Positions 1 to 22,513 of a stretch of DNA of 64,000 bases are shown piece after piece (the first letter of the stretch is position 1; each line of letters begins with the position of its first letter). This DNA comes from a virus. Lineage: Duplodnaviria > Caudoviricetes. The position numbers were made by a program, and so were the translations under genes. A model generated the notes under the pieces. That model was not told where the DNA came from, did no database searches, and saw nothing but the letters and a program-made list of their open reading frames with translations. The stretch covers positions 15,279 to 79,278 of the IMG/VR virus record IMGVR_UViG_3300037761_000250. The stretch is one strand, 5' to 3'.

Positions 1-1650
1 GGCTTGTTTGTAGTCGCCTTGGACGAATACATGTCCCGGGAGGCAAACGAACTGATTACGAATGTCTTTGTCTCGGTCCACGTTTTGCAAGTTAGGGTTA
101 CGAGAAGCAAGTCGTCCGCTAGTGGTTGCATGTAGAGAATAAGTGGTGTAGATTTTTCCATCTCTAACCTTTCGTCGTAATCCTTTTACGTAAGTTCCAT
201 ATAATTTTCCAAATCGACGATTTACTAATAGTAAGTCTACAAACGGACCAACTGGATCGCGCAATGACAAACGAATCTGTTTCAAGAAATCTTTTGATGT
301 TGTTGGTATTGTATATCCGTGTTCGGCAAAATATCGCTGAATCTGAATTGGAGATCGAGGATTCAACTTCTTACCAATAGCCGCTTCGATCTCGGCCTCA
401 GACTTATCTAATTTTTCTTCATAAACTTCGTGTAGATGCTGGTTGTATTCAAGGTCGAAGTAGATTCCGTTTAATTCAATGTGCATCAGTTCATTTGCTG
501 CTTCGATCAAGAATTTGTGCAACTTCTTGTTATCTGCCGACATCTTGGATTCTTGTTGTTCAATCAAATCCCAAGTAGAGCAAGCATCATATGCATTGTA
601 TTTGTAAAGAATAGGTTTTGGAATTTTGGCGTAACTTCCGTCTTTTCCTTTAACGTACTTTTGTATTTCCTCGTCATAACGAGGAGCACCTAAGTCTTCA
701 ACCGCTCTGTCTTTAAGGCCATGCTGGCGTGGTCGTTCATCCAATACGTAAGATCGAAGCATCCCGTCTCCACTTAATTTTTTTACTCCAAACAGTGGAG
801 ATAGCCCAAGCATATCGAATTTTCCATTCCAGGCTTCTACTGGAACTTTCTCTATCAATTTGGCAAATGCGGCAATACAGGCTTCGTCTTTGAATACCCG
901 ATCTCCAAAAACCACAGCCTGTGACTTGGTGTACGCCACACCCACACAAAGGATTTCATAGTTCTCTGGGTGGGAATCATCCAAATCTTTGTCCGAAGCC
1001 GCCTCGATATCAATGACAACTTTGTCGACCGAGCTAAGCCTATTAATAGCCACAAGCGCGGTAGTCGGATCGTTAAATACTTTATATATGGGCGGCCGCC
1101 AACTGAGTGGATCATTGAATAATTTTCCTACGTCGGTAACGAAACTTGGGAAAGCATCAGGTGTCCTTAAACAAAATGCCGGATGCCAGGTACTTATTAC
1201 TGGACCATACTTTGATGAACGATCCCAACCAATCCGAAGTTTTGTAATTTTAGTTTTGGTATTAAGAAGAACCTGGGCCGATGTACCGCCAACGGCAAGA
1301 ATCTTCGGAGCTGCTGCTTTCTCTAGATCATATTCCAACCGCTCATTACAGGCACTAATTACTTGCTTTGGAGGTTTTTCAGTAGGTCCATATGGACGAC
1401 AGCTTACAGTATTAATTAAAGCAATATCTTTGCGCTCAATTCCGTGATAATTTAGTACCGATTCCAGCAACTCACCCGAAGGTCCGGTGAACGGGATGCC
1501 GGACCTAGCCTCCTGCGCTCCCGGTGCCTCGCCCACCACCGCTAGCCTAGCCGAGCCGGCTGGGAATTGGCTTGGGACGTACTTGCCTACCTCACGCCAC
1601 GGGCAAATTTCGCACGCTGCCTTCGGATGCTTTCTTGCTGGAATTTCCAT
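1..1650 (-). CDS. polA: Family-4 uracil-DNA glycosylase / 3'-5' exonuclease / family A DNA polymerase fusion (3' end truncated by window edge)
   Basis: Translated by hand from ATG at 1650; open to base 1 and absent from the ORF track. UDG motifs CEICPW, VVGEAPGAQE..GIPFTGPSG, NTVSCRP and WHPAF; exonuclease motifs VIDIE, WNGKFD and YNAYD; PolA motifs TTSGRLASRNPNLQN and GDYKQA. Confidence 0.93.
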   Translation of the reverse strand, partial: MEIPARKHPKAACEICPWREVGKYVPSQFPAGSARLAVVGEAPGAQEARSGIPFTGPSGELLESVLNYHGIERKDIALINTVSCRPYGPTEKPPKQVISACNERLEYDLEKAAAPKILAVGGTSAQVLLNTKTKITKLRIGWDRSSKYGPVISTWHPAFCLRTPDAFPSFVTDVGKLFNDPLSWRPPIYKVFNDPTTALVAINRLSSVDKVVIDIEAASDKDLDDSHPENYEILCVGVAYTKSQAVVFGDRVFKDEACIAAFAKLIEKVPVEAWNGKFDMLGLSPLFGVKKLSGDGMLRSYVLDERPRQHGLKDRAVEDLGAPRYDEEIQKYVKGKDGSYAKIPKPILYKYNAYDACSTWDLIEQQESKMSADNKKLHKFLIEAANELMHIELNGIYFDLEYNQHLHEVYEEKLDKSEAEIEAAIGKKLNPRSPIQIQRYFAEHGYTIPTTSKDFLKQIRLSLRDPVGPFVDLLLVNRRFGKLYGTYVKGLRRKVRDGKIYTTYSLHATTSGRLASRNPNLQNVDRDKDIRNQFVCLPGHVFVQGDYKQA

Positions 1651-1678
1651 TTTCACCTACTAATACTATTTATTATTT

Positions 1679-1891
1679 CTACGTGTTCAAATATTTGATC
1701 AAGATCAGTGCGTTCTTTGTAAGTTCCATAAAATACAAATTTCGCCTTGGATACTCCCCGCAATTGTGAACAGTGGGAAACATATATCGCTTTTTCTTGT
1801 CTCTTGGGTTTATGTCATTCTCGCGGCAATAATCATAAAACTGCCTGTAGTCTCCAGCTACAACATACTTAGTAATTGGTTCCATTTTCAC
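1679..1891 (-). CDS. Hypothetical protein
   Basis: 70 aa ORF packed tightly in the leftward operon. Confidence 0.55.
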   Translation of the reverse strand: MKMEPITKYVVAGDYRQFYDYCRENDINPRDKKKRYMFPTVHNCGEYPRRNLYFMELTKNALILIKYLNT

Positions 1892-2080
1892 CTCCTGGAT
1901 TTATATATGACTTCAATTAAAATTTCTGGATTGATACCAGTTTTCAAACAACCCTGCATAAATTCAGTGATTTGTTTAACCGAAAATCCGTATGCCCAAA
2001 GCAGCTTGGTCCACTCGTGTGTTTTGGTATATGAAAATGGTAAGTACCGACTAAGATTAGTTGCTAGTTCTTCGTATTCT

Positions 2081-2587
2081 TTATCCACTACTACCGTAAC
2101 CAGTTCCGTCAGGATATATAATTGTGTAAGGCAATTTTGCTGATTTTGCATATTCAATTGTGGTCCAAGTACCAGATCTTGGAACTTTTTTCATGGTTTT
2201 TGGAGTTGCTAGCAGATAAGCAGATTCAGTTATAATGTTAAGGTCTCTTTCTAAGTATGTTTTTGGTTTTCTGGTAACATCGTTCAAGTACATTTCACCC
2301 ATCATGAACTTTTCATTGATTGGTGGATGACCAATGACAGTGAAATCCAAACCTTTTGCTATAAGGGCAACTTGGTAGTCCGCGCCTATGCAGCATCCAT
2401 GATGTAATACATTGAATCTGTGGTAGGTTAGAAAATTGATTACTCCAGCCATTTGCTTGTGTGATAGCCCATATTTTGTTCCTGTGAATCCTAAATGATT
2501 TTTGTTTTTTACAGGTTCTTCATAAGTTTTCACGTTTTCGTCTATAAAATACTCTAGCACACTAGAGTATTCTAACACACTTGTCAT
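2081..2587 (-). CDS. SLOG/DprA-like Rossmann-fold nucleotide-binding protein
   Basis: Motifs GFTGT, HHGCCIGAD, GHPP, ERDLNI and SGTWTTIEYAK resemble the SLOG superfamily; start moved to ATG 2587. Confidence 0.65.
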   Translation of the reverse strand: MTSVLEYSSVLEYFIDENVKTYEEPVKNKNHLGFTGTKYGLSHKQMAGVINFLTYHRFNVLHHGCCIGADYQVALIAKGLDFTVIGHPPINEKFMMGEMYLNDVTRKPKTYLERDLNIITESAYLLATPKTMKKVPRSGTWTTIEYAKSAKLPYTIIYPDGTGYGSSG

Positions 2588-2589
2588 TT

Positions 2590-3401
2590 TTACTCCACAA
2601 TTATAATACGGAACTTTTTGCAATCACAGCCTATGCACAAGCATTTCCCCACCCGATCAAGGTGGGCGCCGTCTGCATGTTTACAACGACACCATTTAAT
2701 CTTATCTATAAGTTCGAATATATTTTTCATTATGTTACCGTGAAGGTCCTTGTGGAGTGTCCTTGGGGTTATCAAGATTCAGTTCACGTTTAGGCCCACA
2801 CATGTCAAACAATGCTATTAAGGCAGGATGTTTTGGATATGCTGCGCCTTGAGGACGTGAGCCACGCTTGCGTGCAGCATATAGTTGAGGTCCTATAAAT
2901 GCTGCCTCGGACACCCGGTTGCAATCAATTACTGATTCTTCGAACAACTTCACGTCTTCTTTTGATCCTATTTTTTCACAGTCGGAAGTTGCCCACCAGA
3001 ATGTATCGTCACAAAGTGCAAATACAGTTAAATCATCGTGCCAGAAAATTCCTTCTTGGATGTCGTATTTAGCAACAAGTTTGGCCACTTCTAGGAAGAT
3101 TTCTATTCTCTCATTTTTCATTTGCTAGCTCCCTAAAAAGATGCCAAACAAATCCATTAGTTGCCAATGCGGTTCCCACGTATTGGATACTGGAGACAAT
3201 TTCTGGTACTGGCCAACCAGTGCCAAATGCCTTAAACATGTAAGATATTGGTGGATGGTCATTTGTCCATGACCAAAATTCCACTATGTCTGATTCACGA
3301 CTTGCAACATGCAGGATTGGACCGGTTAGAGTAATTTTGTGCCATTCCTCGTCTACTGGAACTTCGTACCGATAAATTCTTTGTGGCTGTTTATTCGTCA
3401 T
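2590..3401 (-). CDS. Three small hypothetical genes (2590-2775, 2735-3121, 3111-3401)
   Basis: Tightly packed or overlapping ORFs with phage-like composition; the first is Cys-rich. Confidence 0.55.
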
Positions 3402-4071
3402 CTGCCAACTCCTTTAATATATCGTCCATCTTGTCAATATCAATTGGTTGGTCACTACTAACTGGATCAATACCAACTTTTCCAAGACGTTCGTGCATCG
3501 ATTGAAACGATGAGAAAATCTGATGATGCCTTAGTTTTACCCGATCAAATGAAGGTTCTATTTCTGGTTTCCAGTACGAAGTTGGATCGATTCGGAGGAT
3601 TTCTTTTGGGTTTAAAGTACCTAGTTTCATTATAGCATCCTCTGTAGCTATTTTATTGAATATCCAGTTTCTTCCTTCAAAATGTCGGTCGGTAAATATC
3701 AATACGCTTCCATCTCGAAATCTTACTCGAAGAGATGGACATTTTTTGTGTGTAAGAGTTCTAGTAACAGCTTCTAATCTACTATTTTCAATTTTTATTT
3801 CGTAAACTACGTCAAGATTCAAAGTAGCATCGGAAAATATTACTAATTTTTGTCCAAGTTTCCATGGGCCGCAAGTATCGCAGGCGTAACTTTTGCATCG
3901 AATGACGTGATAGAAATGTTGTCCATTTTGTTTTACACCCCAAGCTGGTAGTAAGCACCTCCTATTGTTGCCATGGATGATTACTTTACTACCGGATTCT
4001 TGGGTCATCGCATCACTCAACCAAATATGGTCAGACGCTTTTTGGCCCTGGTTACTCCGGTGTATAGCCAA
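3391..4071 (-). CDS. Hypothetical protein with RCxSxxCxxC Zn-binding motif
   Basis: VIRCKSYACDTCGPW; lies immediately downstream of the helicase and prim-pol genes. Confidence 0.55.
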   Translation of the reverse strand: MAIHRSNQGQKASDHIWLSDAMTQESGSKVIIHGNNRRCLLPAWGVKQNGQHFYHVIRCKSYACDTCGPWKLGQKLVIFSDATLNLDVVYEIKIENSRLEAVTRTLTHKKCPSLRVRFRDGSVLIFTDRHFEGRNWIFNKIATEDAIMKLGTLNPKEILRIDPTSYWKPEIEPSFDRVKLRHHQIFSSFQSMHERLGKVGIDPVSSDQPIDIDKMDDILKELADDE

Positions 4072-5294
4072 CGGTCATATTCACGACCATTAGCAAGCCT
4101 TTTTTGAAACGAGCTGTCGGGTTCAAAAATCACCACCTCATCATACTCTGAACCTTGAGCTGTATGGGTAGTCTGTGCATATGCATATGACCAACGCTGT
4201 AGATGGTCAGCTCCATCCGGCATCATCCCTTCGAATTGTTTCGCTGAAATATGGACTCTACTCAGTGTTTTTCCATATTCAGTGGTGATAGTTGCCAAAT
4301 AAGTTTGACTATCTAATTCTTTCAACCAATCAATGACACCTCTTGTTCCCTTTGGAATTCCATGGTGTCGGATGTTTTTAGCAAGAACAACACGTTCACC
4401 AGGCTTTGGTGGTCCACTAAGACCTCTTATAGACCTAACACCTTTATTTAGATAGTGAAATGTGAAATTGCGATTAGGTTTACTTGTAACGTAGTAGTTT
4501 TCTCTACTAAAGAAAGTCAGCATCATTAAATCCGGATTATCCAGATCAATGTCGAACTCTCCATCATTCGGAAATGATAACCGACGTACATCTTGACTAA
4601 ATTCTCCGTATTCCAATCGCTCACCATTTCTAATTTTGTGAGCTAATTGGATTATTGGTGAATCTTTTGCTTGTCGGTGGATATCGGCAACATTATCCAT
4701 CTTAATATTAGCGTCTGACATTAGATCTAATTTTGATTTATAATTATATCCAAGTCGGACTAATTCACTTCCACTCTCTACTGGAGGTAATTGAAAGTGG
4801 TCTCCAAAAAAGATAATACTGGAGTTTTTTGGCATGGTTTCAATTATATCATCATAGAGGATGCGACCTACCATGGAACTTTCGTCGCAAATAAGAAGAC
4901 GTGTGCCTCCGATTTCTCTTGGATTAAAAGAAAGTACACATCCACAAGCATTATAGGTTCCTGATCCATGACAAAGATCTCGTTCGTCAGTTCGGTATGG
5001 ACAGGTACTACAATGATGTGAAATTGGACGATAAAATTTGTTATGTATAGTAACAACACGTTGTGAGATATCTAGAGCCTTGTGCTTTTCGCCCAATACC
5101 AAGGTTGCTTTGTTCGTTGGGGCAATAAAACATACTTCCTTTCGATCTATGCCAAGCAATTCAGGCAATTGGACAGCTAAGGTGGTCTTGCCAGTTCCGG
5201 CTAGACCACCTACTTTAACAATTCTTTGTCCATTTCTAAGTGAATTATCAATTTCCGACACTACCCATGCTTGCTTTTCAGTAAGTTCAATCAT
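4017..5294 (-). CDS. RecD/Dda-like superfamily 1B DNA helicase
   Basis: GLAGTGKTT, DESSMV, GDHFQLPPV, YAQTTHTAQGSEY and YTGVTRAK. Confidence 0.92.
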   Translation of the reverse strand: MIELTEKQAWVVSEIDNSLRNGQRIVKVGGLAGTGKTTLAVQLPELLGIDRKEVCFIAPTNKATLVLGEKHKALDISQRVVTIHNKFYRPISHHCSTCPYRTDERDLCHGSGTYNACGCVLSFNPREIGGTRLLICDESSMVGRILYDDIIETMPKNSSIIFFGDHFQLPPVESGSELVRLGYNYKSKLDLMSDANIKMDNVADIHRQAKDSPIIQLAHKIRNGERLEYGEFSQDVRRLSFPNDGEFDIDLDNPDLMMLTFFSRENYYVTSKPNRNFTFHYLNKGVRSIRGLSGPPKPGERVVLAKNIRHHGIPKGTRGVIDWLKELDSQTYLATITTEYGKTLSRVHISAKQFEGMMPDGADHLQRWSYAYAQTTHTAQGSEYDEVVIFEPDSSFQKRLANGREYDRWLYTGVTRAKKRLTIFG

Positions 5295-6292
5295 ACTTTC
5301 CTTCTCAAAGTTGTATGGGCAGCTACCCGTCTTGGAATTTTGTTTCTTATTAGAATTTCGAAATCATGTCTGGTTCGTTCATTTAAAATAATTGAAGTTC
5401 CACAAGCACAAGATGAAGTTATGTTATCCACGTGTGCAAGTACGTAATCAACTTCGCTATCCCACTCGCTTTGTAAGTCACGTGATCTAGGTGCATTGAC
5501 GAAAATGTTTACTAGAGTTTCTAGAGCGTACTTAACCCCTGAATGACCATGACTGCCAGCGGTGAGTATTTTTCCAATAATGGTTAGTCCAGTGTCATGA
5601 ACACCACCATCGTAGGATAATTGTAACTGTTGTGAACATTCTATCATAAGTTTAGACATGAATTCACAGATTGATTCATTTGGAAATGAATCTAATTCCT
5701 TGAATTCTTGTCGGGGAGATTGAATAAATATGGACCTTACCGGTTCCTCTACTAACTGCTCGGTCCACATTTCTGGTAACTCTGTTAGGTCTTTGATTTC
5801 TGGAATTTGTCCAACTAACTCATTTCCACCCAGTCCGTTATACCATAAATAACGAGATTCTGCTTCTTTGTTCCATGATGGATAAGTAATCACGTATCTA
5901 TGAGTGTACTGAATTACCGTTATTCCGTTTATGGTACTGTACCATTTTCCGTTTTCATATTTTTCCGGAATACGATAAAGTATCTTCCCGCCTTCACCAC
6001 CCCGGGCATCTACATTGAATGTAGTTGGTAGCTTTCCGTACTTGTTTTCTAGTTCTTGTAATTTGTTAAGGTCATCTTTGTAAGCATCTATATCTAGTGC
6101 TATTACGTTCTTAGGTAAACGAATAGCTATATTTGCCCATTGGTACTCGCCTATCCACTTTTTAATTTGTTGATTAGTGGCAAGTCCGTATCCACCACTT
6201 ACACCTTTTACAATTATATTTTTTCCTTTTGCTGGTAGAGGAGAGAACCCGGCCATATAATATGTTTCAGCAGCAAGTCCGTATGGTCCCAT
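5291..6292 (-). CDS. Bifunctional DNA primase/polymerase (prim-pol)
   Basis: N-terminal YYMAGFSPLPAKGK, VIALDIDAYK and YVITYPS, typical of actinophage prim-pol domains. Confidence 0.8.
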   Translation of the reverse strand: MGPYGLAAETYYMAGFSPLPAKGKNIIVKGVSGGYGLATNQQIKKWIGEYQWANIAIRLPKNVIALDIDAYKDDLNKLQELENKYGKLPTTFNVDARGGEGGKILYRIPEKYENGKWYSTINGITVIQYTHRYVITYPSWNKEAESRYLWYNGLGGNELVGQIPEIKDLTELPEMWTEQLVEEPVRSIFIQSPRQEFKELDSFPNESICEFMSKLMIECSQQLQLSYDGGVHDTGLTIIGKILTAGSHGHSGVKYALETLVNIFVNAPRSRDLQSEWDSEVDYVLAHVDNITSSCACGTSIILNERTRHDFEILIRNKIPRRVAAHTTLRRKV

Positions 6293-12688: not shown

Positions 12689-15521
12689 TCAGTTCTGTTT
12701 ATCAAGAAACCCATCTTTAATTCTAAGTCTGTTTAATTGACTATAGCACCTATAAAATTCCCGTTCTATTATCTTATTAGATTCTACCGCTTCCTCATCA
12801 ATAATTTGGAAGGTTCTTAAATCATCTGGAATTGTAAAAACGCTTACCGTTTTACGTTCGTGATCGGTAATTGCTATTGATACTATTAATCTTTCCATTG
12901 ATTTTCTTTCTTTAAAGTAATCAATGCTTGAGCATGGATGCCACCTTGTACGTAACCCGCGTGGTCCATGCACACCGATTGTCCGTTTATTATCATATCC
13001 GCATAAGCTGCTTCTGTTGGTGGAGTAGGTTGGGGTTGGAATACGCAAATACTACAAAGCAACTCAGTCACGGGGCACCGCCTCGTCCTGGGTGACCAAC
13101 CGAACGGTACGGATGTCCTGCTCCAAGGCGTCCAGCACCAGCAGCCATTGGCCGCCTATCTCGGCGTGGAACCGAATACGTGGTGGGGCGTCCGCCTTGT
13201 CGCCGAACAAGTAGCCTAACAACGCGCCGGTCCAACTTACCTGGCTTGCTTTTACGTGTTCAGTGTGGCCACTGGTCCACGTGATTTCGTACGTTTGCAG
13301 TTTTCCACGCTTGGAATGTGGTGTTGGTTCAGTAAATCTAGGCGGAGTCCGCTTGGGGAACAGGGGTAGGGGCTCGTCTGTAGGGTAGTAGGGAATCATG
13401 GTCTCTCCATTCTGGCGTCGTTATTATTTCCTAATATGGAAGATCGTGCTTTTTGGCTAATTTGTAGGCTTCAAGTTCTTCCTTTTCCTTTTTTTTTTCC
13501 TTATTAATCTCACGCTTTTGTCGGTTAGTTGGTCGACTTATCCAAGCCAATAATGCCATTCCAATACCAATGAGAGCTGCTACTGGCCAAGCAATCATAA
13601 TTGCGAACAAAGGTATCCAACCATCTTCTTCGGGATCCATACAGTTTTCGAAATATTTATCATCTATAATATATGCCAAACGAGCTGAAAATACTCCAAC
13701 TAACAAATAACCTAGTATAATCACCCAAACCAACAACTAGTTCACGTCCTTAGTTATAGAATATCCGCATTGTTTCAATGCTTTAATTACATTTTGTGCA
13801 AAACGCTCGCGCACGCTAAAATTTAAGAATGGTTTTCCTCCTGGGGCAAGTGGCCTACCAAATTCTTTGCATGCCTCGTTAGCTATAATGGATATGTGAA
13901 TTGAATGATTATGTTTTGATGTCATGGATGCTTAACCCAATCTAATGTTTCTTGGATACTTTTTCCAATATTCAGCCAATTTGTATTGTAAACCTTTTTT
14001 CTGTTTTGAAGATTTGCTCTAGCCAAACAATAACGAACAGCGTTATCTAGCAAATCAATTGTTTCATAATGGGATTCATTGGGAACTTCAAACGTTATTT
14101 TCATTTACGTCAACCTCGTATAGTTTCACATCTACGTAACCATTATGTGCATCTCTCCTAGCAATCCTGCGTGCTCCCCATCTTGTGCACGCATAGGATA
14201 TAACCCTACCTTCATTTGTAGAGACTTCATAACGAAATATTATGGGAACGTGTTCATAGCGAACAATTTTATATATTTTCTTCATTTTTTATTTTTCCAC
14301 CCGTGGAGAGTAATATTTTGACCTTCCCTCTATTTTTACTTTTTGTAGATCAGCTAGTACGTCATGTTCCGGATCGTCCCATGGTAGTACGTGTGGAGGT
14401 TCGCAATCATCTCCGTAATAGTGCGTTCGGGGAAGCGCGCTTGGGCATTTTTTGTCATGCTTAATTTCTCCATTTCTCCATGGTTTATGACAAATAATGC
14501 AACGTTGTCCATCCATATTAATTCTTTTCTTGTATTGTCTTCTCACGGACGTGCTTACCAAACCGCCGAAGCATATCTATCACTTCATCCTTTAAACGGT
14601 ACTTGGCGTCGTTCCACTCGACGTATTCATCTATACCTGAATGAAGACACCCAGCTTCCGTTATCGTAAATTCAGTGAGTGCATCTTCCAGTGATGCATC
14701 CAAATTGTCGAACGACTGTATAGCAGAAAACAACGGCACAACACCTGCTTCTATTTCGACATTAAGAGCTGCCAACAGTCCTCCGCGCATACACACTTTG
14801 CCATCGGCATCGATCTCTTCACCTTGGCACCACCCGCGTATGCTGATTTCGTCTGCGGCCTTGTCGGCAATATCTGCCCATTCGGGTTTTAAGTTATGAT
14901 CCATCAGTGATCTTCCTTATATTTTGCTGTCATGTAGGCCATGTGATCCTTGTAGAGAATAAGCTGTGTTCATTATTGTGATACAATTTAATTAGGTCCT
15001 GTTCGGTAGCTGATTTATTATTCTTTTTTAGTTTTTCAAAAAGCAAATCGAACAGAATTCCTTCATCATCAAACAATTCAACGCATGCTTCACATTTATT
15101 TTCCATTTTTAAAATTCCAAAATTCTTCAATTTCTTCTATAAGTTGATGGGCATAGGAAGGATCGTCATGACATATTGACAACATCCACTGTTCAACAAC
15201 ATTTTCAAATGTTTCAGGTCCACGGAAAACATAGTCTGAATCATATCTTGCTACAAAATATCGGTGAATTTGAACTTGTATATCAAGATCACTTTTATCA
15301 CCAAAATGGTCTGCTACTTTGCTCACTTTATACTCTTTCTATTTTTGAAAATATGAGTGGATAAGTGCAGTAGACAAATAGCACAAACCTAACAATACTG
15401 GACATGCTTCAATGGCTGTTCGTGGGTCGATAATTGCCACCGTTAAAGGAACTACGATACCAATGCCAAGCGCGCTTAGTAAAGCAATTATTCTCCATAT
15501 AAAACAATTGCGCGCTGCCAC
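12689..15521 (-). CDS. Cluster of about 12 small hypothetical genes (including membrane proteins 13431-13736 and 15339-15521, and the GWCQG...WND family protein 14518-14904)
   Basis: Consecutive, tightly packed minus-strand ORFs with overlapping stop/start codons. Confidence 0.55.
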
Positions 15522-19728: not shown

Positions 19729-19761
19729 AAAAATGGGGAGGCTATATGCCTCCCCGTTTTT
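19729..19761. terminator. Bidirectional terminator-like hairpin
   Basis: AAAAATGGGGAGGC-TATAT-GCCTCCCCGTTTTT between the Ltp gene and tRNA-Lys. Confidence 0.65.
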
Positions 19762-19778
19762 ATTTCAACAAATATGTT

Positions 19779-20279
19779 CTACAGTCCTACCTCAGTTGCT
19801 GCATGTTCCGCTTGCTTTGTGGTAAATCCTTCGAATTCCAACTGCTCGATCAGTCCTTGACGGGAGAAGTTCGAGAACTCAAGGTAATTCTCGGCACTAC
19901 CAACAGCCTGCGCCATCCAGTCTACATCTAGATAATCAACCGCGAACTCGGCATCTTCCGTAGAGAATCCTTCGAGTTCTAATTGATTAATAAGTCCCTT
20001 GCGGGAGAAATTGAAAATATCCAGGTAATTTTGAGCCGATCCAGTTGCTTGTTTCTGGGCAGTTGTCAACTCTGGATCGGTTGACATTTCTGTTTCTTTA
20101 TTATTCTCAGGTTGAACGGTAATGTTATCGCTCTGTCCTAAAGACGTAAGGGTAACAATTGTACCAAGAAGACACATCCCCAAAATTCCAACTAATACAA
20201 TTAGAACAATCCTTCTTGTTTTGTTCTTCTTCTTTTTCGGAGGAAACTCTCCGTTTTGTTGTGGATAATACTGTGTCAC
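19779..20279 (-). CDS. Ltp-family membrane protein (superinfection-exclusion-like)
   Basis: N-terminal TM helix plus two repeats A..YL....FSR.GLI.QLE.EGF....A..A. Confidence 0.8.
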   Translation of the reverse strand: MTQYYPQQNGEFPPKKKKNKTRRIVLIVLVGILGMCLLGTIVTLTSLGQSDNITVQPENNKETEMSTDPELTTAQKQATGSAQNYLDIFNFSRKGLINQLELEGFSTEDAEFAVDYLDVDWMAQAVGSAENYLEFSNFSRQGLIEQLEFEGFTTKQAEHAATEVGL

Positions 20280-20574: not shown

Positions 20575-21016
20575 TTGCAGTGTTGAGGTTATTCACGTCT
20601 CTAGAAAGTAAACGGACAAAGAAAACTTTCGAGCCGAAGAACAGGAATGTTTGGAGCCATTCCTGCATTGTTCTTAAAACAATTGTTCCCTCAACACTAC
20701 GCTTATTGAACCCACGTCAGTGACCTAAGATGATTAACAGCCTGTGATGTTAATTTATCATCTTATATTAGATGGTCATTGACGTGGGTCTTTCACAACT
20801 CAGGACTTGACTAATAATCAAGTAAGGCGCCTGAGCTAGCTTTAAGTGGGTATCGTGGTTGCCAGCCCATACCCAGTAAATCTCACCTGGCCGAACAGAT
20901 GTATTCACAGTGCGTCGGTGCACAGACAGAGCGTTCTATTGTCCAAACGGGTCAGGGTGCTTGAGCAATTAACGGGTGTCTTTACCATTTGTTAGTAAAA
21001 TTTACTAACATCGACG

Positions 21017-21158
21017 TGGGGCGGACAGGACTTGAACCTGTATCCTGCTGTCGTCGTTCACCCACCGGAAACCTCGCCTTGGTTGGCTACTCAGCCCAGC
21101 TATTTTCCAGCTTAACAGGTGGTGCTAGCACGCAGCTCTACCGTTGAGCTACCGCCCC
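21017..21158 (-). ncRNA. 142-nt tRNA-like RNA with expanded, branched anticodon domain
   Basis: Perfect GGGGCGG/CCGCCCC acceptor plus A73, D arm GCTC-AACGGTA-GAGC and T arm ACAGG-TTCAAGT-CCTGT, but about 86 nt between the D arm and the variable loop. Confidence 0.75.
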
Positions 21159-21464
21159 TCGATGGAGGAAAATGGCCATTCCCTCCATCTATCTACATTT
21201 GTTTAAGGAAAATAAACGTAGAAAACAACCCCACAGTTTAGGATGCACGTCCCGAGATAGCGGTTCTCACAACTTTTGTGTGACTTGTCACGAACCACCA
21301 GCTAAAGAAGTTTGTAAACGTGCATTCCAAACTTCTTTACTGGTTCAGTCGATGACGAGGAGTAAGTTGCCAACTCACCTCGAACCTCACGCAGTCGAGG
21401 CCAAGCGTCCAGTTTTGGTTTTGTTCACTTTAAGTGAACCAAGGTGTAACTGGAAAACACCTCG

Positions 21465-21537
21465 TGCGCCAAGTAGGATTTGAACCTACACTATACCGGG
21501 CTTAAACCGGTTGCCTCTACCGTTGGGCTATTAGCGC
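21465..21537 (-). tRNA. tRNA-Leu(UAA), short variable loop
   Basis: GCGCTAA/TTGGCGC; ACCGG-TTTAAGC-CCGGT; 5-nt variable region ATAGT; GTAGG-TTCAAAT-CCTAC. Confidence 0.9.
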
Positions 21538-21551
21538 GTCTAAATGAGTTG

Positions 21552-21695
21552 TTTAATTTATTATTTACCACTTAATGTGGAAGTGTCGCGTCGACTTTGC
21601 AACTCAGTATCCGGCGGTCCTTCTTGTTTAAGACAGTGTATCTGTCACCGTCAATACTGGACACTTCCACATTAAGTGGTCAATAATAAATTAAA
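21552..21695. repeat. 36-bp inverted repeat enclosing a 72-nt structured loop
   Basis: Arms 21552-21587 and 21660-21695 with one mismatch. Confidence 0.9.
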
Positions 21696-21829
21696 AGTTA
21701 AAAAGTTGTGAGTAGTCCCGGACGGATTAGTCTTAGTCTGTTCTCCCAGGCCGGGACACCCAGTTCCAGAACTTTTAGTGCGCGCGCTCCGTGGTCTCGT
21801 CGCCGAGATTGCATACTCACAACTTGGAC

Positions 21830-22500
21830 AATAGCCAATATATCTAGATATACTGACTATTATCACTTGGGCACATAACTAGATGTCGTTTAATACCGAG
21901 GTTCTCCAACCAGGTACCCCAAGCTTAGTAAAGGTCAACAGACGAATAATAATCCCCTATCCGTTCTGCCCGTTACCGGATTTTCGACCTTCACTGATTC
22001 AACTTTTGGAACTACGGCGTCGACCAAACCGCACTTGCCTCTTTAATCCCTATGCCTAATCCTGACGGACAGGTCTCCCTCACGGGTGGCCACGGGCCGC
22101 AACGCAGAGCTACCTCGTTACGGTAGATGCGGTTCCTAACCCTTATCAATCCCGGAGGATGATAAGGAATTAATTTGTCCATCGTGACGACAATGTTTGC
22201 TCCGTCCATGAACTTTCGGTTTGACCAGAGGAACTATTGCGCGGATTCAGGCAATTAATCTCACGATTAATGCAATCTCCGAGGAGATTATCTTTGCTCA
22301 TCGCTCACACTTCCGGAGTGTCCACCGGAAGACTCCTACCACCGACAGGGAAAATTCGAAGGTATGCCTTTAGTTCGCTAAGCTGAACAGGTCATGACTC
22401 CTGCGTGCCACATCCGTGGAAGTACCACTGTTATATGACATACCAACGTTTTAGGTGTCCCGTTTTTCGCGCACCTTCGGGACCACAAGGCGAGGAAGCA
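21830..22500 (-). ncRNA. Candidate large structured ncRNA
   Basis: No convincing CDS; dense hairpins, several capped by GNRA loops on the minus strand. Confidence 0.5.
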
Positions 22501-22513
22501 TTAAATGCCGCGG

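Follow-up and report, generated by a model that had tools for sequence, protein, structure and literature searches.

A phage tRNA-like gene whose intact anticodon stem is split at 41/42 by a 70-nucleotide insert

The locus described here belongs to a tailed phage represented by IMG/VR record IMGVR_UViG_3300037761_000250, a sequence of 79,278 bp that is complete by CheckV, of which a stretch of 64,000 nucleotides (record positions 15,279 to 79,278; hereafter the window) was analysed. Genes for the large terminase, portal, protease, major head protein, helicase, primase and exonuclease are present. The GC content is about 43%, and the phage encodes a WhiB regulator (PF02467, E 5.6e-21); on the strength of this gene, the host is almost certainly an actinobacterium. 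Six ordinary tRNA genes occupy the minus strand between 19.6 and 24 kb: Lys-UUU, Glu-UUC, Gln-UUG, a tRNA with the anticodon UAA and two tRNA-Met. Interspersed with these are small ORFs and approximately 1.4 kb of ORF-free DNA, rich in hairpins and inverted repeats, which surrounds the split tRNA gene that is the subject of this study. To judge by its proteins, the phage is isolated among known sequences. No relative of its helicase above 66% identity occurs among 5.8 billion protein clusters, the closest being 60-66% identical, and for the neighbouring DUF2786 protein there is none at E <= 1e-20. The search for related loci returned none with the helicase as query and only unrelated phages with a Sie-like lipoprotein from the island.

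The Rfam tRNA model RF00005 matches positions 21017-21158 of the minus strand with 45.8 bits, where the gathering score is 29, and its alignment takes in all but 83 nt, which sit between two G-C pairs of the anticodon stem. The 5' part of the tRNA body (Table 1) comprises the acceptor strand GGGGCGG, U8 and A9, the D arm GCUC-AACGGUA-GAGC and U26, followed on the anticodon side by the stem strand GCGUG, the loop CUAGCAC and the trinucleotide CAC (positions 39-41), with the anticodon AGC at 21124-21126. The 3' part resumes with G42 and C43, which pair with C28 and G27, and continues through the variable loop AGGAU and the T arm ACAGG-UUCAAGU-CCUGU to the acceptor strand CCGCCCC and the discriminator A73; CCA is not encoded. 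The acceptor, D and T stems are of 7, 4 and 5 bp, the latter two closing the loops AACGGUA and UUCAAGU. Watson-Crick pairing holds in 21 of the 21 stem pairs of the body, and the universal bases U8, A14, G18 G19, A21, U54 U55 C56 and A58 are all present. The body is, in short, a flawless class-I tRNA. A first-pass annotation, made from the letters alone, had already recognized this scaffold with its perfect acceptor, D and T arms and AGGAT loop, the pair G3-C70, the complete D arm and the two flanking hairpins, and all of these are confirmed by the alignment or by direct reading. The likeness to tmRNA that it also raised does not hold: ARAGORN run with -m gave no match, and the D arm is complete. 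ARAGORN in its default mode does not call the split gene, which as encoded is without a contiguous 17-nt anticodon arm (5-bp stem, 7-nt loop).

The hairpin that precedes the tRNA body may serve as a signal for processing or termination, and the palindrome beyond the discriminator may have the same role at the 3' end. Hairpins likewise flank other tRNAs of the cluster, a comparable one preceding tRNA-Lys at 19729-19761.

Table 1. Coordinates of the split tRNA gene and its flanks in the window, and of Ro60-associated features in contigs of distant relatives
Feature	Position	Strand	Basis or remark
5' part of tRNA body	21119..21158	-	RF00005 alignment and deletion scan
70-nt insert, between tRNA positions 41 and 42	21049..21118	-	Deletion scan; starts CUGUUAAG, ends GACGACA
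3' part of tRNA body	21017..21048	-	RF00005 alignment, deletion scan and fold
8-bp hairpin (GAUGGAGG ... CCUCCAUC)	21161..21189	-	Read from sequence; ends 2 nt ahead of the first base of the tRNA body
AT-rich palindrome (UUAGUAAA/UUUACUAA)	20990..21010	-	Read from sequence; begins 7 nt past the discriminator
Ro60/RNA-gene regions	L173:558-1500, 1557-3176; L170:2371-2453, 3502-5106, 5315-5395; L176:1343-1423, 1460-3079
tRNA-shaped genes with 9-10-bp anticodon stem	L170:2371-2453; L170:5315-5395; L176:1343-1423

The anticodon arm was located by a scan of all single deletions after which 16-19 nt remain between U26 and A44. Only one such deletion yields five pairs, all Watson-Crick, together with U33 and a purine (A37) at position 37. 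It removes nt 41-110 of the element, 70 nt in all, from between tRNA positions 41 and 42, and leaves the arm GCGUG-CUAGCAC-CACGC with the anticodon AGC. By a rough hand calculation over 18 registers, the chance of such a restoration in random sequence is about 0.002 when only Watson-Crick pairs are counted and 0.02 when wobble pairs are allowed. For the joined 72-mer the predicted fold is a cloverleaf of -33.1 kcal/mol (z -3.09), and 0 of 200 shuffles fold as well. The anticodon stem-loop is therefore intact but split in its 3' strand, at 41/42, and the insert leaves the pairing in both of the stem helices that flank it undisturbed. The first-pass annotation had placed about 86 nt where the anticodon arm belongs. 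The length is nearly right, there being 87 nt from the D arm to the variable loop, but a complete arm lies within them and none has been replaced. Two elements of the anatomy drawn for this region change their meaning as a result: GTGC-TA-GCAC, taken as the base of the insert, is the anticodon hairpin (GUG-CUAGCAC-CAC) in a shifted register, and CACCACC, taken as one strand of the stem closing an inserted domain, is mostly exon (loop nt 36-38 and stem nt 39-41).

Folded alone, the insert has a minimum free energy of -17.3 kcal/mol, a z-score of -0.04, and 91 of 200 shuffled sequences fold as well. The 67 nt from CACCACC to GGUGGGUGA, which had been proposed to form three hairpins, have a z-score of -0.91 (35 of 200 shuffles are as good), and their minimum free energy structure is one long irregular hairpin, not three. 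Even the whole 142-mer reaches a z-score of only -1.92. By these folding models, the three-hairpin domain is a drawing that chance allows and not a supported structure, and the suggestion of an aptamer-like fold displayed on the scaffold fares no better than chance in the shuffle tests. Rfam searches of the region at E <= 10, proposed earlier as a check for a known family, return the tRNA model only, with no intron, ribozyme or other family. Elsewhere in the 4.7-kb island there is neither a direct repeat nor a second copy of the insert, and at its ends there is neither a target-site duplication nor any clear terminal repeat of a mobile element; the motif ACAGCAG spans the 3' junction of insert and exon. 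The insert is thus unstructured and unique.

The split element is a singleton in the collections searched. A blastn search with an 801-nt region against 50,697 GenBank phage records gave no homologue, nor did four exact or degenerate patterns (for insert, arm and body) among IMG/VR viral contigs or nhmmer searches of element and insert against 168 loci. The body pattern had two matches among JGI metagenome contigs, both in ordinary tRNA-His genes, and the arm pattern had two chance matches in non-tRNA DNA among 185,579 species genomes. A covariance model of arm and insert, run against 17 loci including those of relatives and the window, found itself only, and the insert occurs in none of 14 relative loci, nor does any relative carry this tRNA. 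The sole sequencing run that contains the locus is the source of the DNA, a sediment metagenome, among whose contigs there is no variant without the insert.

These results bring forward the explanation that the gene has recently been broken, a 70-bp piece of DNA having entered a tRNA-like gene of a plastic, hairpin-rich island and left it functionless but not yet decayed. An insert without significant fold, family match, homologue or second copy, in an element found once, is what such an event would produce, and the ORF-free, inverted-repeat-rich surroundings, in an island where gain and loss are frequent among relatives (see below), suit it as well. Decay, on the other hand, has left no trace in the body, with its unbroken Watson-Crick pairing and full set of universal bases, or in the two helices beside the insert, and the insert ends carry none of the duplications or repeats that mark mobile elements; each of these observations would still be compatible with an event of very recent date. 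We consider a broken gene a somewhat unlikely account of the locus.

In several respects the split tRNA resembles a tRNA-Ala: its 5' end is GGGGC, the discriminator is A73, the anticodon is AGC, and the anticodon loop ends in GCAC with A37 and C38. The pair on which AlaRS depends, and which constitutes the universal identity of alanine tRNAs, is the wobble pair G3-U70. Here G3 pairs with C70, which sets the gene apart from tRNA-Ala, and AlaRS should therefore not charge the split tRNA. A34 is itself unusual in bacteria outside tRNA-Arg(ACG). For a tRNA combining the AGC anticodon with G3-C70 no synthetase is obvious, and if an enzyme other than AlaRS charged it, alanine codons would be mistranslated. 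The ribosome, moreover, grips the anticodon stem in the region of pairs 28:42 and 29:41. With a 70-nt branch at precisely this place and no alanine identity, the unspliced RNA would not be a normal decoder; as transcribed, we infer, it cannot be an ordinary decoding tRNA. Spliced or unspliced, an ordinary decoding role appears unlikely.

A decoding tRNA might nevertheless be built from the same letters in the manner of class II tRNAs or allo-tRNAs, with a giant extra arm. The anticodon stem would then close with the CU that directly follows CAC, at the price of a C-C mismatch and a G-U pair, and the other 75 nt would form the variable region. The deletion scan does contain this register, with four of five pairs (k=17), and another phage tRNA match, L043:3467-3606 (-), at 37.7 bits to RF00005, has about 70 extra nt after its anticodon hairpin. 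The perfect pairing, however, uses the GC after the insert, and this is the pairing in the Rfam alignment too; the extra region is without the stable basal stem of class II variable arms. Alignment of the 3'-side inserts of L043 and of a further contig, L013, with the 70-nt insert shows no homology, and the identity problem posed by G3-C70 stays. A giant extra arm is accordingly given only a slim chance.

A second way to a decoding tRNA would be removal of the insert as a protein-dependent intron, host enzymes cutting at 41/42 and at the 3' end of the insert and a host ligase, for example RtcB, rejoining the halves. The product would be a 72-nt tRNA with the anticodon AGC, which might supplement the reading of GCU in an AT-rich phage. 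In favour of splicing, the anticodon arm and cloverleaf are both perfect once the insert is excised exactly, and the gene lies among six ordinary tRNAs, two of them tRNA-Met and four for A-ending codons. A precedent of a kind is available from Lak megaphages, in which short 'enigmatic' introns have been reported in tRNA genes, with no splicing shown (Devoto et al. 2019, PMC6784885). Like the insert of the split gene, these are short, have no ribozyme and no mechanism known, and their computational removal restores a normal tRNA. The Lak inserts differ in several ways. They lie in the anticodon loop, as placed by tRNAscan in eukaryote mode (PMC6784885), and not in the 3' strand of the stem at 41/42. 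Their sequences are the same from cohort to cohort, some relatives have them and others lack them, and one may itself be tRNA-shaped, whereas the insert of the split gene is a singleton. Removal from the split gene, finally, would give a tRNA without alanine identity. In the literature found by full-text search, splicing of such phage inserts is not shown, and there is no description of inserts that split the stem of a phage tRNA.

The means of excision were sought in both sequence and genome. Group I introns also interrupt anticodon arms in bacterial and phage genomes, but they are of about 200 nt or more, have a catalytic core (P3-P9) and lie in the anticodon loop, whereas the insert is of 70 nt, lies in the stem and has no match to an intron model, tRNA being the only Rfam match at E <= 10; a group I intron was rejected on these grounds. 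Archaeal introns at non-canonical positions are a closer parallel, being short, excised by proteins and able to lie within stems. They need a bulge-helix-bulge and EndA, both of which are absent from the split gene and the phage, and the host is bacterial. The predicted fold has unpaired stretches of 1 nt and 6 nt around a 4-bp helix in place of two 3-nt bulges, and a check for a hammerhead-type motif at the insert found none. An inner tRNA-shaped intron was likewise discarded: the only cloverleaf-like drawing uses the helix CACCACC/GGUGGGUG, which is not the minimum free energy structure (z -0.91), and cutting at the ends of that helix, as RNase P and 3'-end processing sites, leaves 20 nt that are unable to form an anticodon arm. 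ARAGORN, when allowed introns, offers a tRNA-Arg(CCG) that needs a 57-nt intron, contains a G-G mismatch and has a long variable arm, a solution far worse than that at 41/42. The complete 79-kb genome contains no EndA (PF01974), RtcB, Rnl2-type ligase or PNKP; a search for the T4 Rnl1 family missed every control genome too, so its result is not counted.

Splicing thus has to contend with a product that AlaRS should not charge, whose charging by another enzyme would mistranslate alanine codons and whose A34 is atypical; with exon junctions that carry no ribozyme, no bulge-helix-bulge and no inner tRNA shape with processing sites; and with a phage that has no candidate endonuclease or ligase. 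At least some of the stem-splitting inserts in other phages, furthermore, appear to be permanent (see below). A protein-dependent intron is, in our estimation, unlikely. Somewhat less likely still is the full proposition that the 70 nt are a true non-catalytic intron of the anticodon stem at 41/42, cut by host nucleases and sealed by a host RNA ligase, which would be a new kind for bacteria and their viruses. If the RNA is spliced, it would be evidence of protein-dependent tRNA splicing in a bacterial system, and if the insert is a true intron, maturation of a phage tRNA-like RNA would depend on the RNA-repair machinery of the host.

Other phage tRNA bodies that bear inserts were collected from viral contigs with a spacing pattern (a D arm, 75-105 nt, a T loop), and candidates were then checked for a paired acceptor stem. 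Over a dozen single tRNA bodies, each enlarged by 40-80 nt, came from unrelated viral contigs in this way. In four of these, with the insert at 29/30 (L096, L083) or 28/29 (L018, L034), removal restores a perfect arm, with the identities Ile-GAU, Arg-UCU, Asn-GUU and Lys-UUU, respectively. A fifth body, L013:4668-4795 (31 bits to RF00005), regains a perfect Pro-GGG arm, read by eye, when an insert at 39/40 is removed. The restorations in L018, L034 and L013 may be counted for an intron in the present gene also. Site 28/29 is the mirror of 41/42 across the stem, and 29/30 is close to the mirror; in L045 the insert lies at the boundary of stem and loop (31/32 or 32/33). The site at 41/42, in the 3' strand and opposite the 28/29 used by other inserts, is new among the cases examined.

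The inserts of L083, L045 and L096 are of 41-53 nt and consist of a hairpin followed by AC(A/U)GCAA, and all three of the contigs tested (3/3) encode a DUF2828 (Ro60-like) protein. This co-occurrence implies that stem-splitting inserts can be permanent parts of partner RNAs, and it supports the view that these three inserts would be protein handles grafted into tRNA bodies, not introns. The split gene shares with the handle RNAs a phage tRNA body that is normal except for the insert in its anticodon arm. In the handle RNAs, however, a helix of 6-7 bp is followed after 2 nt by ACAGCAA, whereas the split gene has ACAGCAG, a match at 6 of 7 positions, and its nearest helix is of 4 bp and stands 3 to 7 nt off; the complete genome, unlike the three contigs, has no DUF2828 (PF11443). 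Membership of the handle class was rejected on account of the helix spacing and the missing partner gene.

A second family of inserts was noticed in L018, L034 and L114 (two genes). These are of 55-65 nt, split anticodon arms for Asn-GUU and Lys-UUU at 28/29 and end in a common ...GAGUUACUU(C) motif. DUF2828 was absent from the two contigs of this family that were tested, both of which are small fragments.

Seven contigs whose helicase shares 60-66% identity with that of the phage served as distant relatives, the island being read between the DUF2786-type gene and the HTH_17-helicase block. In three of the seven (L170, L173 and L176), the same island carries a full Ro60 protein (TROVE and vWA_Ro60). 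Upstream of the Ro60 gene in L173 are three matches to YrlA (RF02553), of 44, 39 and 29 bits (E 3e-8 to 1e-3), all of them below the gathering score of 69 bits, and the gene is preceded as well by two tRNA-shaped genes of 115 and 85 nt, the longer of which contains a CGAA motif. Ro60 in L170 and L176 is flanked by tRNA-shaped genes with an anticodon stem of 9-10 bp and loops without U33. All three islands thus have unpermuted tRNA-shaped genes with either such an extended stem or an insert of 40-60 nt, and these may be Ro60 partner RNAs of normal tRNA topology. One of them, L170:5315, matches the split element at 23 of its first 26 nt, far above any ordinary tRNA compared, and also has G3-C70. 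Relative to the split element, it shows two-sided, pair-keeping changes at 6:67 (G-C to U-A) and 49:65 (A-U to U-A). In this phage lineage, then, a tRNA-Ala-like body without alanine identity appears to serve in non-decoding RNAs. In a fourth relative, a 2.6-kb gene-free stretch includes tRNA-like genes of 81, 101 and 96 nt (L178:3081-3792), all three aberrant and two of them with a short anticodon-like hairpin and a long extra arm. The tRNA and ncRNA content of the island differs in every relative examined, from which it follows that gain and loss are frequent.

The phage itself has none of this apparatus. No Ro60 (PF05731) was found in the 79-kb genome, in which the Ro60 protein of L170 as query finds nothing, not even a pseudogene remnant; YrlA (RF02553) gave no match at E <= 10 or E <= 5, and CGAA does not occur in the 142 nt. 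YrlA Y RNAs, which are bound by Ro60/Rsr (Chen et al. 2014, PMC4201824) and are represented in Thermus phage phiLo by Yrl1/2 (PMC12135203), nonetheless offer an instructive comparison. Like the split RNA as we read it, they are non-decoding, with tRNA-like D, T and acceptor elements, and they occur in actinobacteria and their phages. They are circularly permuted, with their ends on the anticodon side, whereas the split RNA has its ends at the acceptor stem; and they have a Ro60-binding stem with a CGAA-type motif and adjoin a Ro60 gene, whereas the split gene has neither this motif, an RF02553 match nor a Ro60 neighbour.

Taken together, the lineage context and the pristine body are the main grounds on which we favour, tentatively and with a probability of about 0.35, an unspliced, non-decoding tRNA mimic as the best explanation of the split gene. 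The transcript would have its ends trimmed like those of the other tRNAs in the cluster, by RNase P, 3' trimming and CCA addition, and would be neither spliced nor used in decoding. The tRNA body would confer stability and access to tRNA-binding proteins. The arm on the anticodon side would be the working end, presenting an exposed loop like that of tRNA-Ala, an alternative helix formed between exon and insert (CACCACC/GGUGGGUG) and a 10-nt single strand. It might bait a host enzyme that cuts or binds tRNA, or it might dock a host protein. The non-decoding tRNA-shaped RNAs beside Ro60 and YrlA in the same island of distant relatives would be its parallel. With no Ro60, DUF2828 or YrlA in the phage, any partner would have to be a host protein.

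Several observations weigh against a tRNA mimic. Its insert folds like shuffled sequence, which would not be expected of a structured domain under selection, and as it has no homologue it offers neither covariation nor conservation. The absence of Ro60, DUF2828 and YrlA from the phage, and of the CGAA motif of Y RNAs from the RNA, counts against a mimic as well. An intron, or an insertion of very recent date, would leave just such a perfect canonical anticodon hairpin behind, and L170:5315 may look alike because the two descend independently from tRNA-Ala genes. Of the proposals in the first-pass annotation, a tRNA-mimic ncRNA and an unusual intron both survive, although the anatomy given for them was mistaken, the anticodon arm being present once the 70 nt are removed. 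The probability not taken up by the four readings discussed here falls to something else.

The present single-copy element should be taken as a lead, not as an established result. Were the RNA to prove stable and unspliced, it would be a natural 'tRNA scaffold' with a cargo, possibly a bait for host enzymes that target tRNA. More broadly, phage tRNA clusters are turning out to contain many genes that are tRNA-shaped and are not ordinary tRNAs.

Further features of the island merit description in their own right. The tRNA called as Leu(UAA), at 21465-21537 (-), is a 73-nt, class-I molecule with a variable loop of only 5 nt; the variable arm of bacterial tRNA-Leu is normally long. This tRNA shares 94% identity with the split tRNA in the D arm. 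Adjoining it is a 36-nt inverted repeat (21552-21695), 97% complementary and enclosing 72 nt, which has no matching Rfam family and opens an ORF-free stretch of about 960 nt (21552-22513). Between tRNA-Gln and the split tRNA, some 430 nt (20579-21012) are without a credible ORF and without an Rfam match and contain a 16-bp stem (20710-20725/20774-20789). Among the tRNA genes, finally, lies a gene for a 166-aa lipoprotein (19779-20279, minus strand) with matches to superinfection-exclusion families (phrog_4980, E 6.5e-35). As 49 otherwise unrelated viral contigs encode relatives of this protein at 37-64% identity, it looks like a mobile moron.
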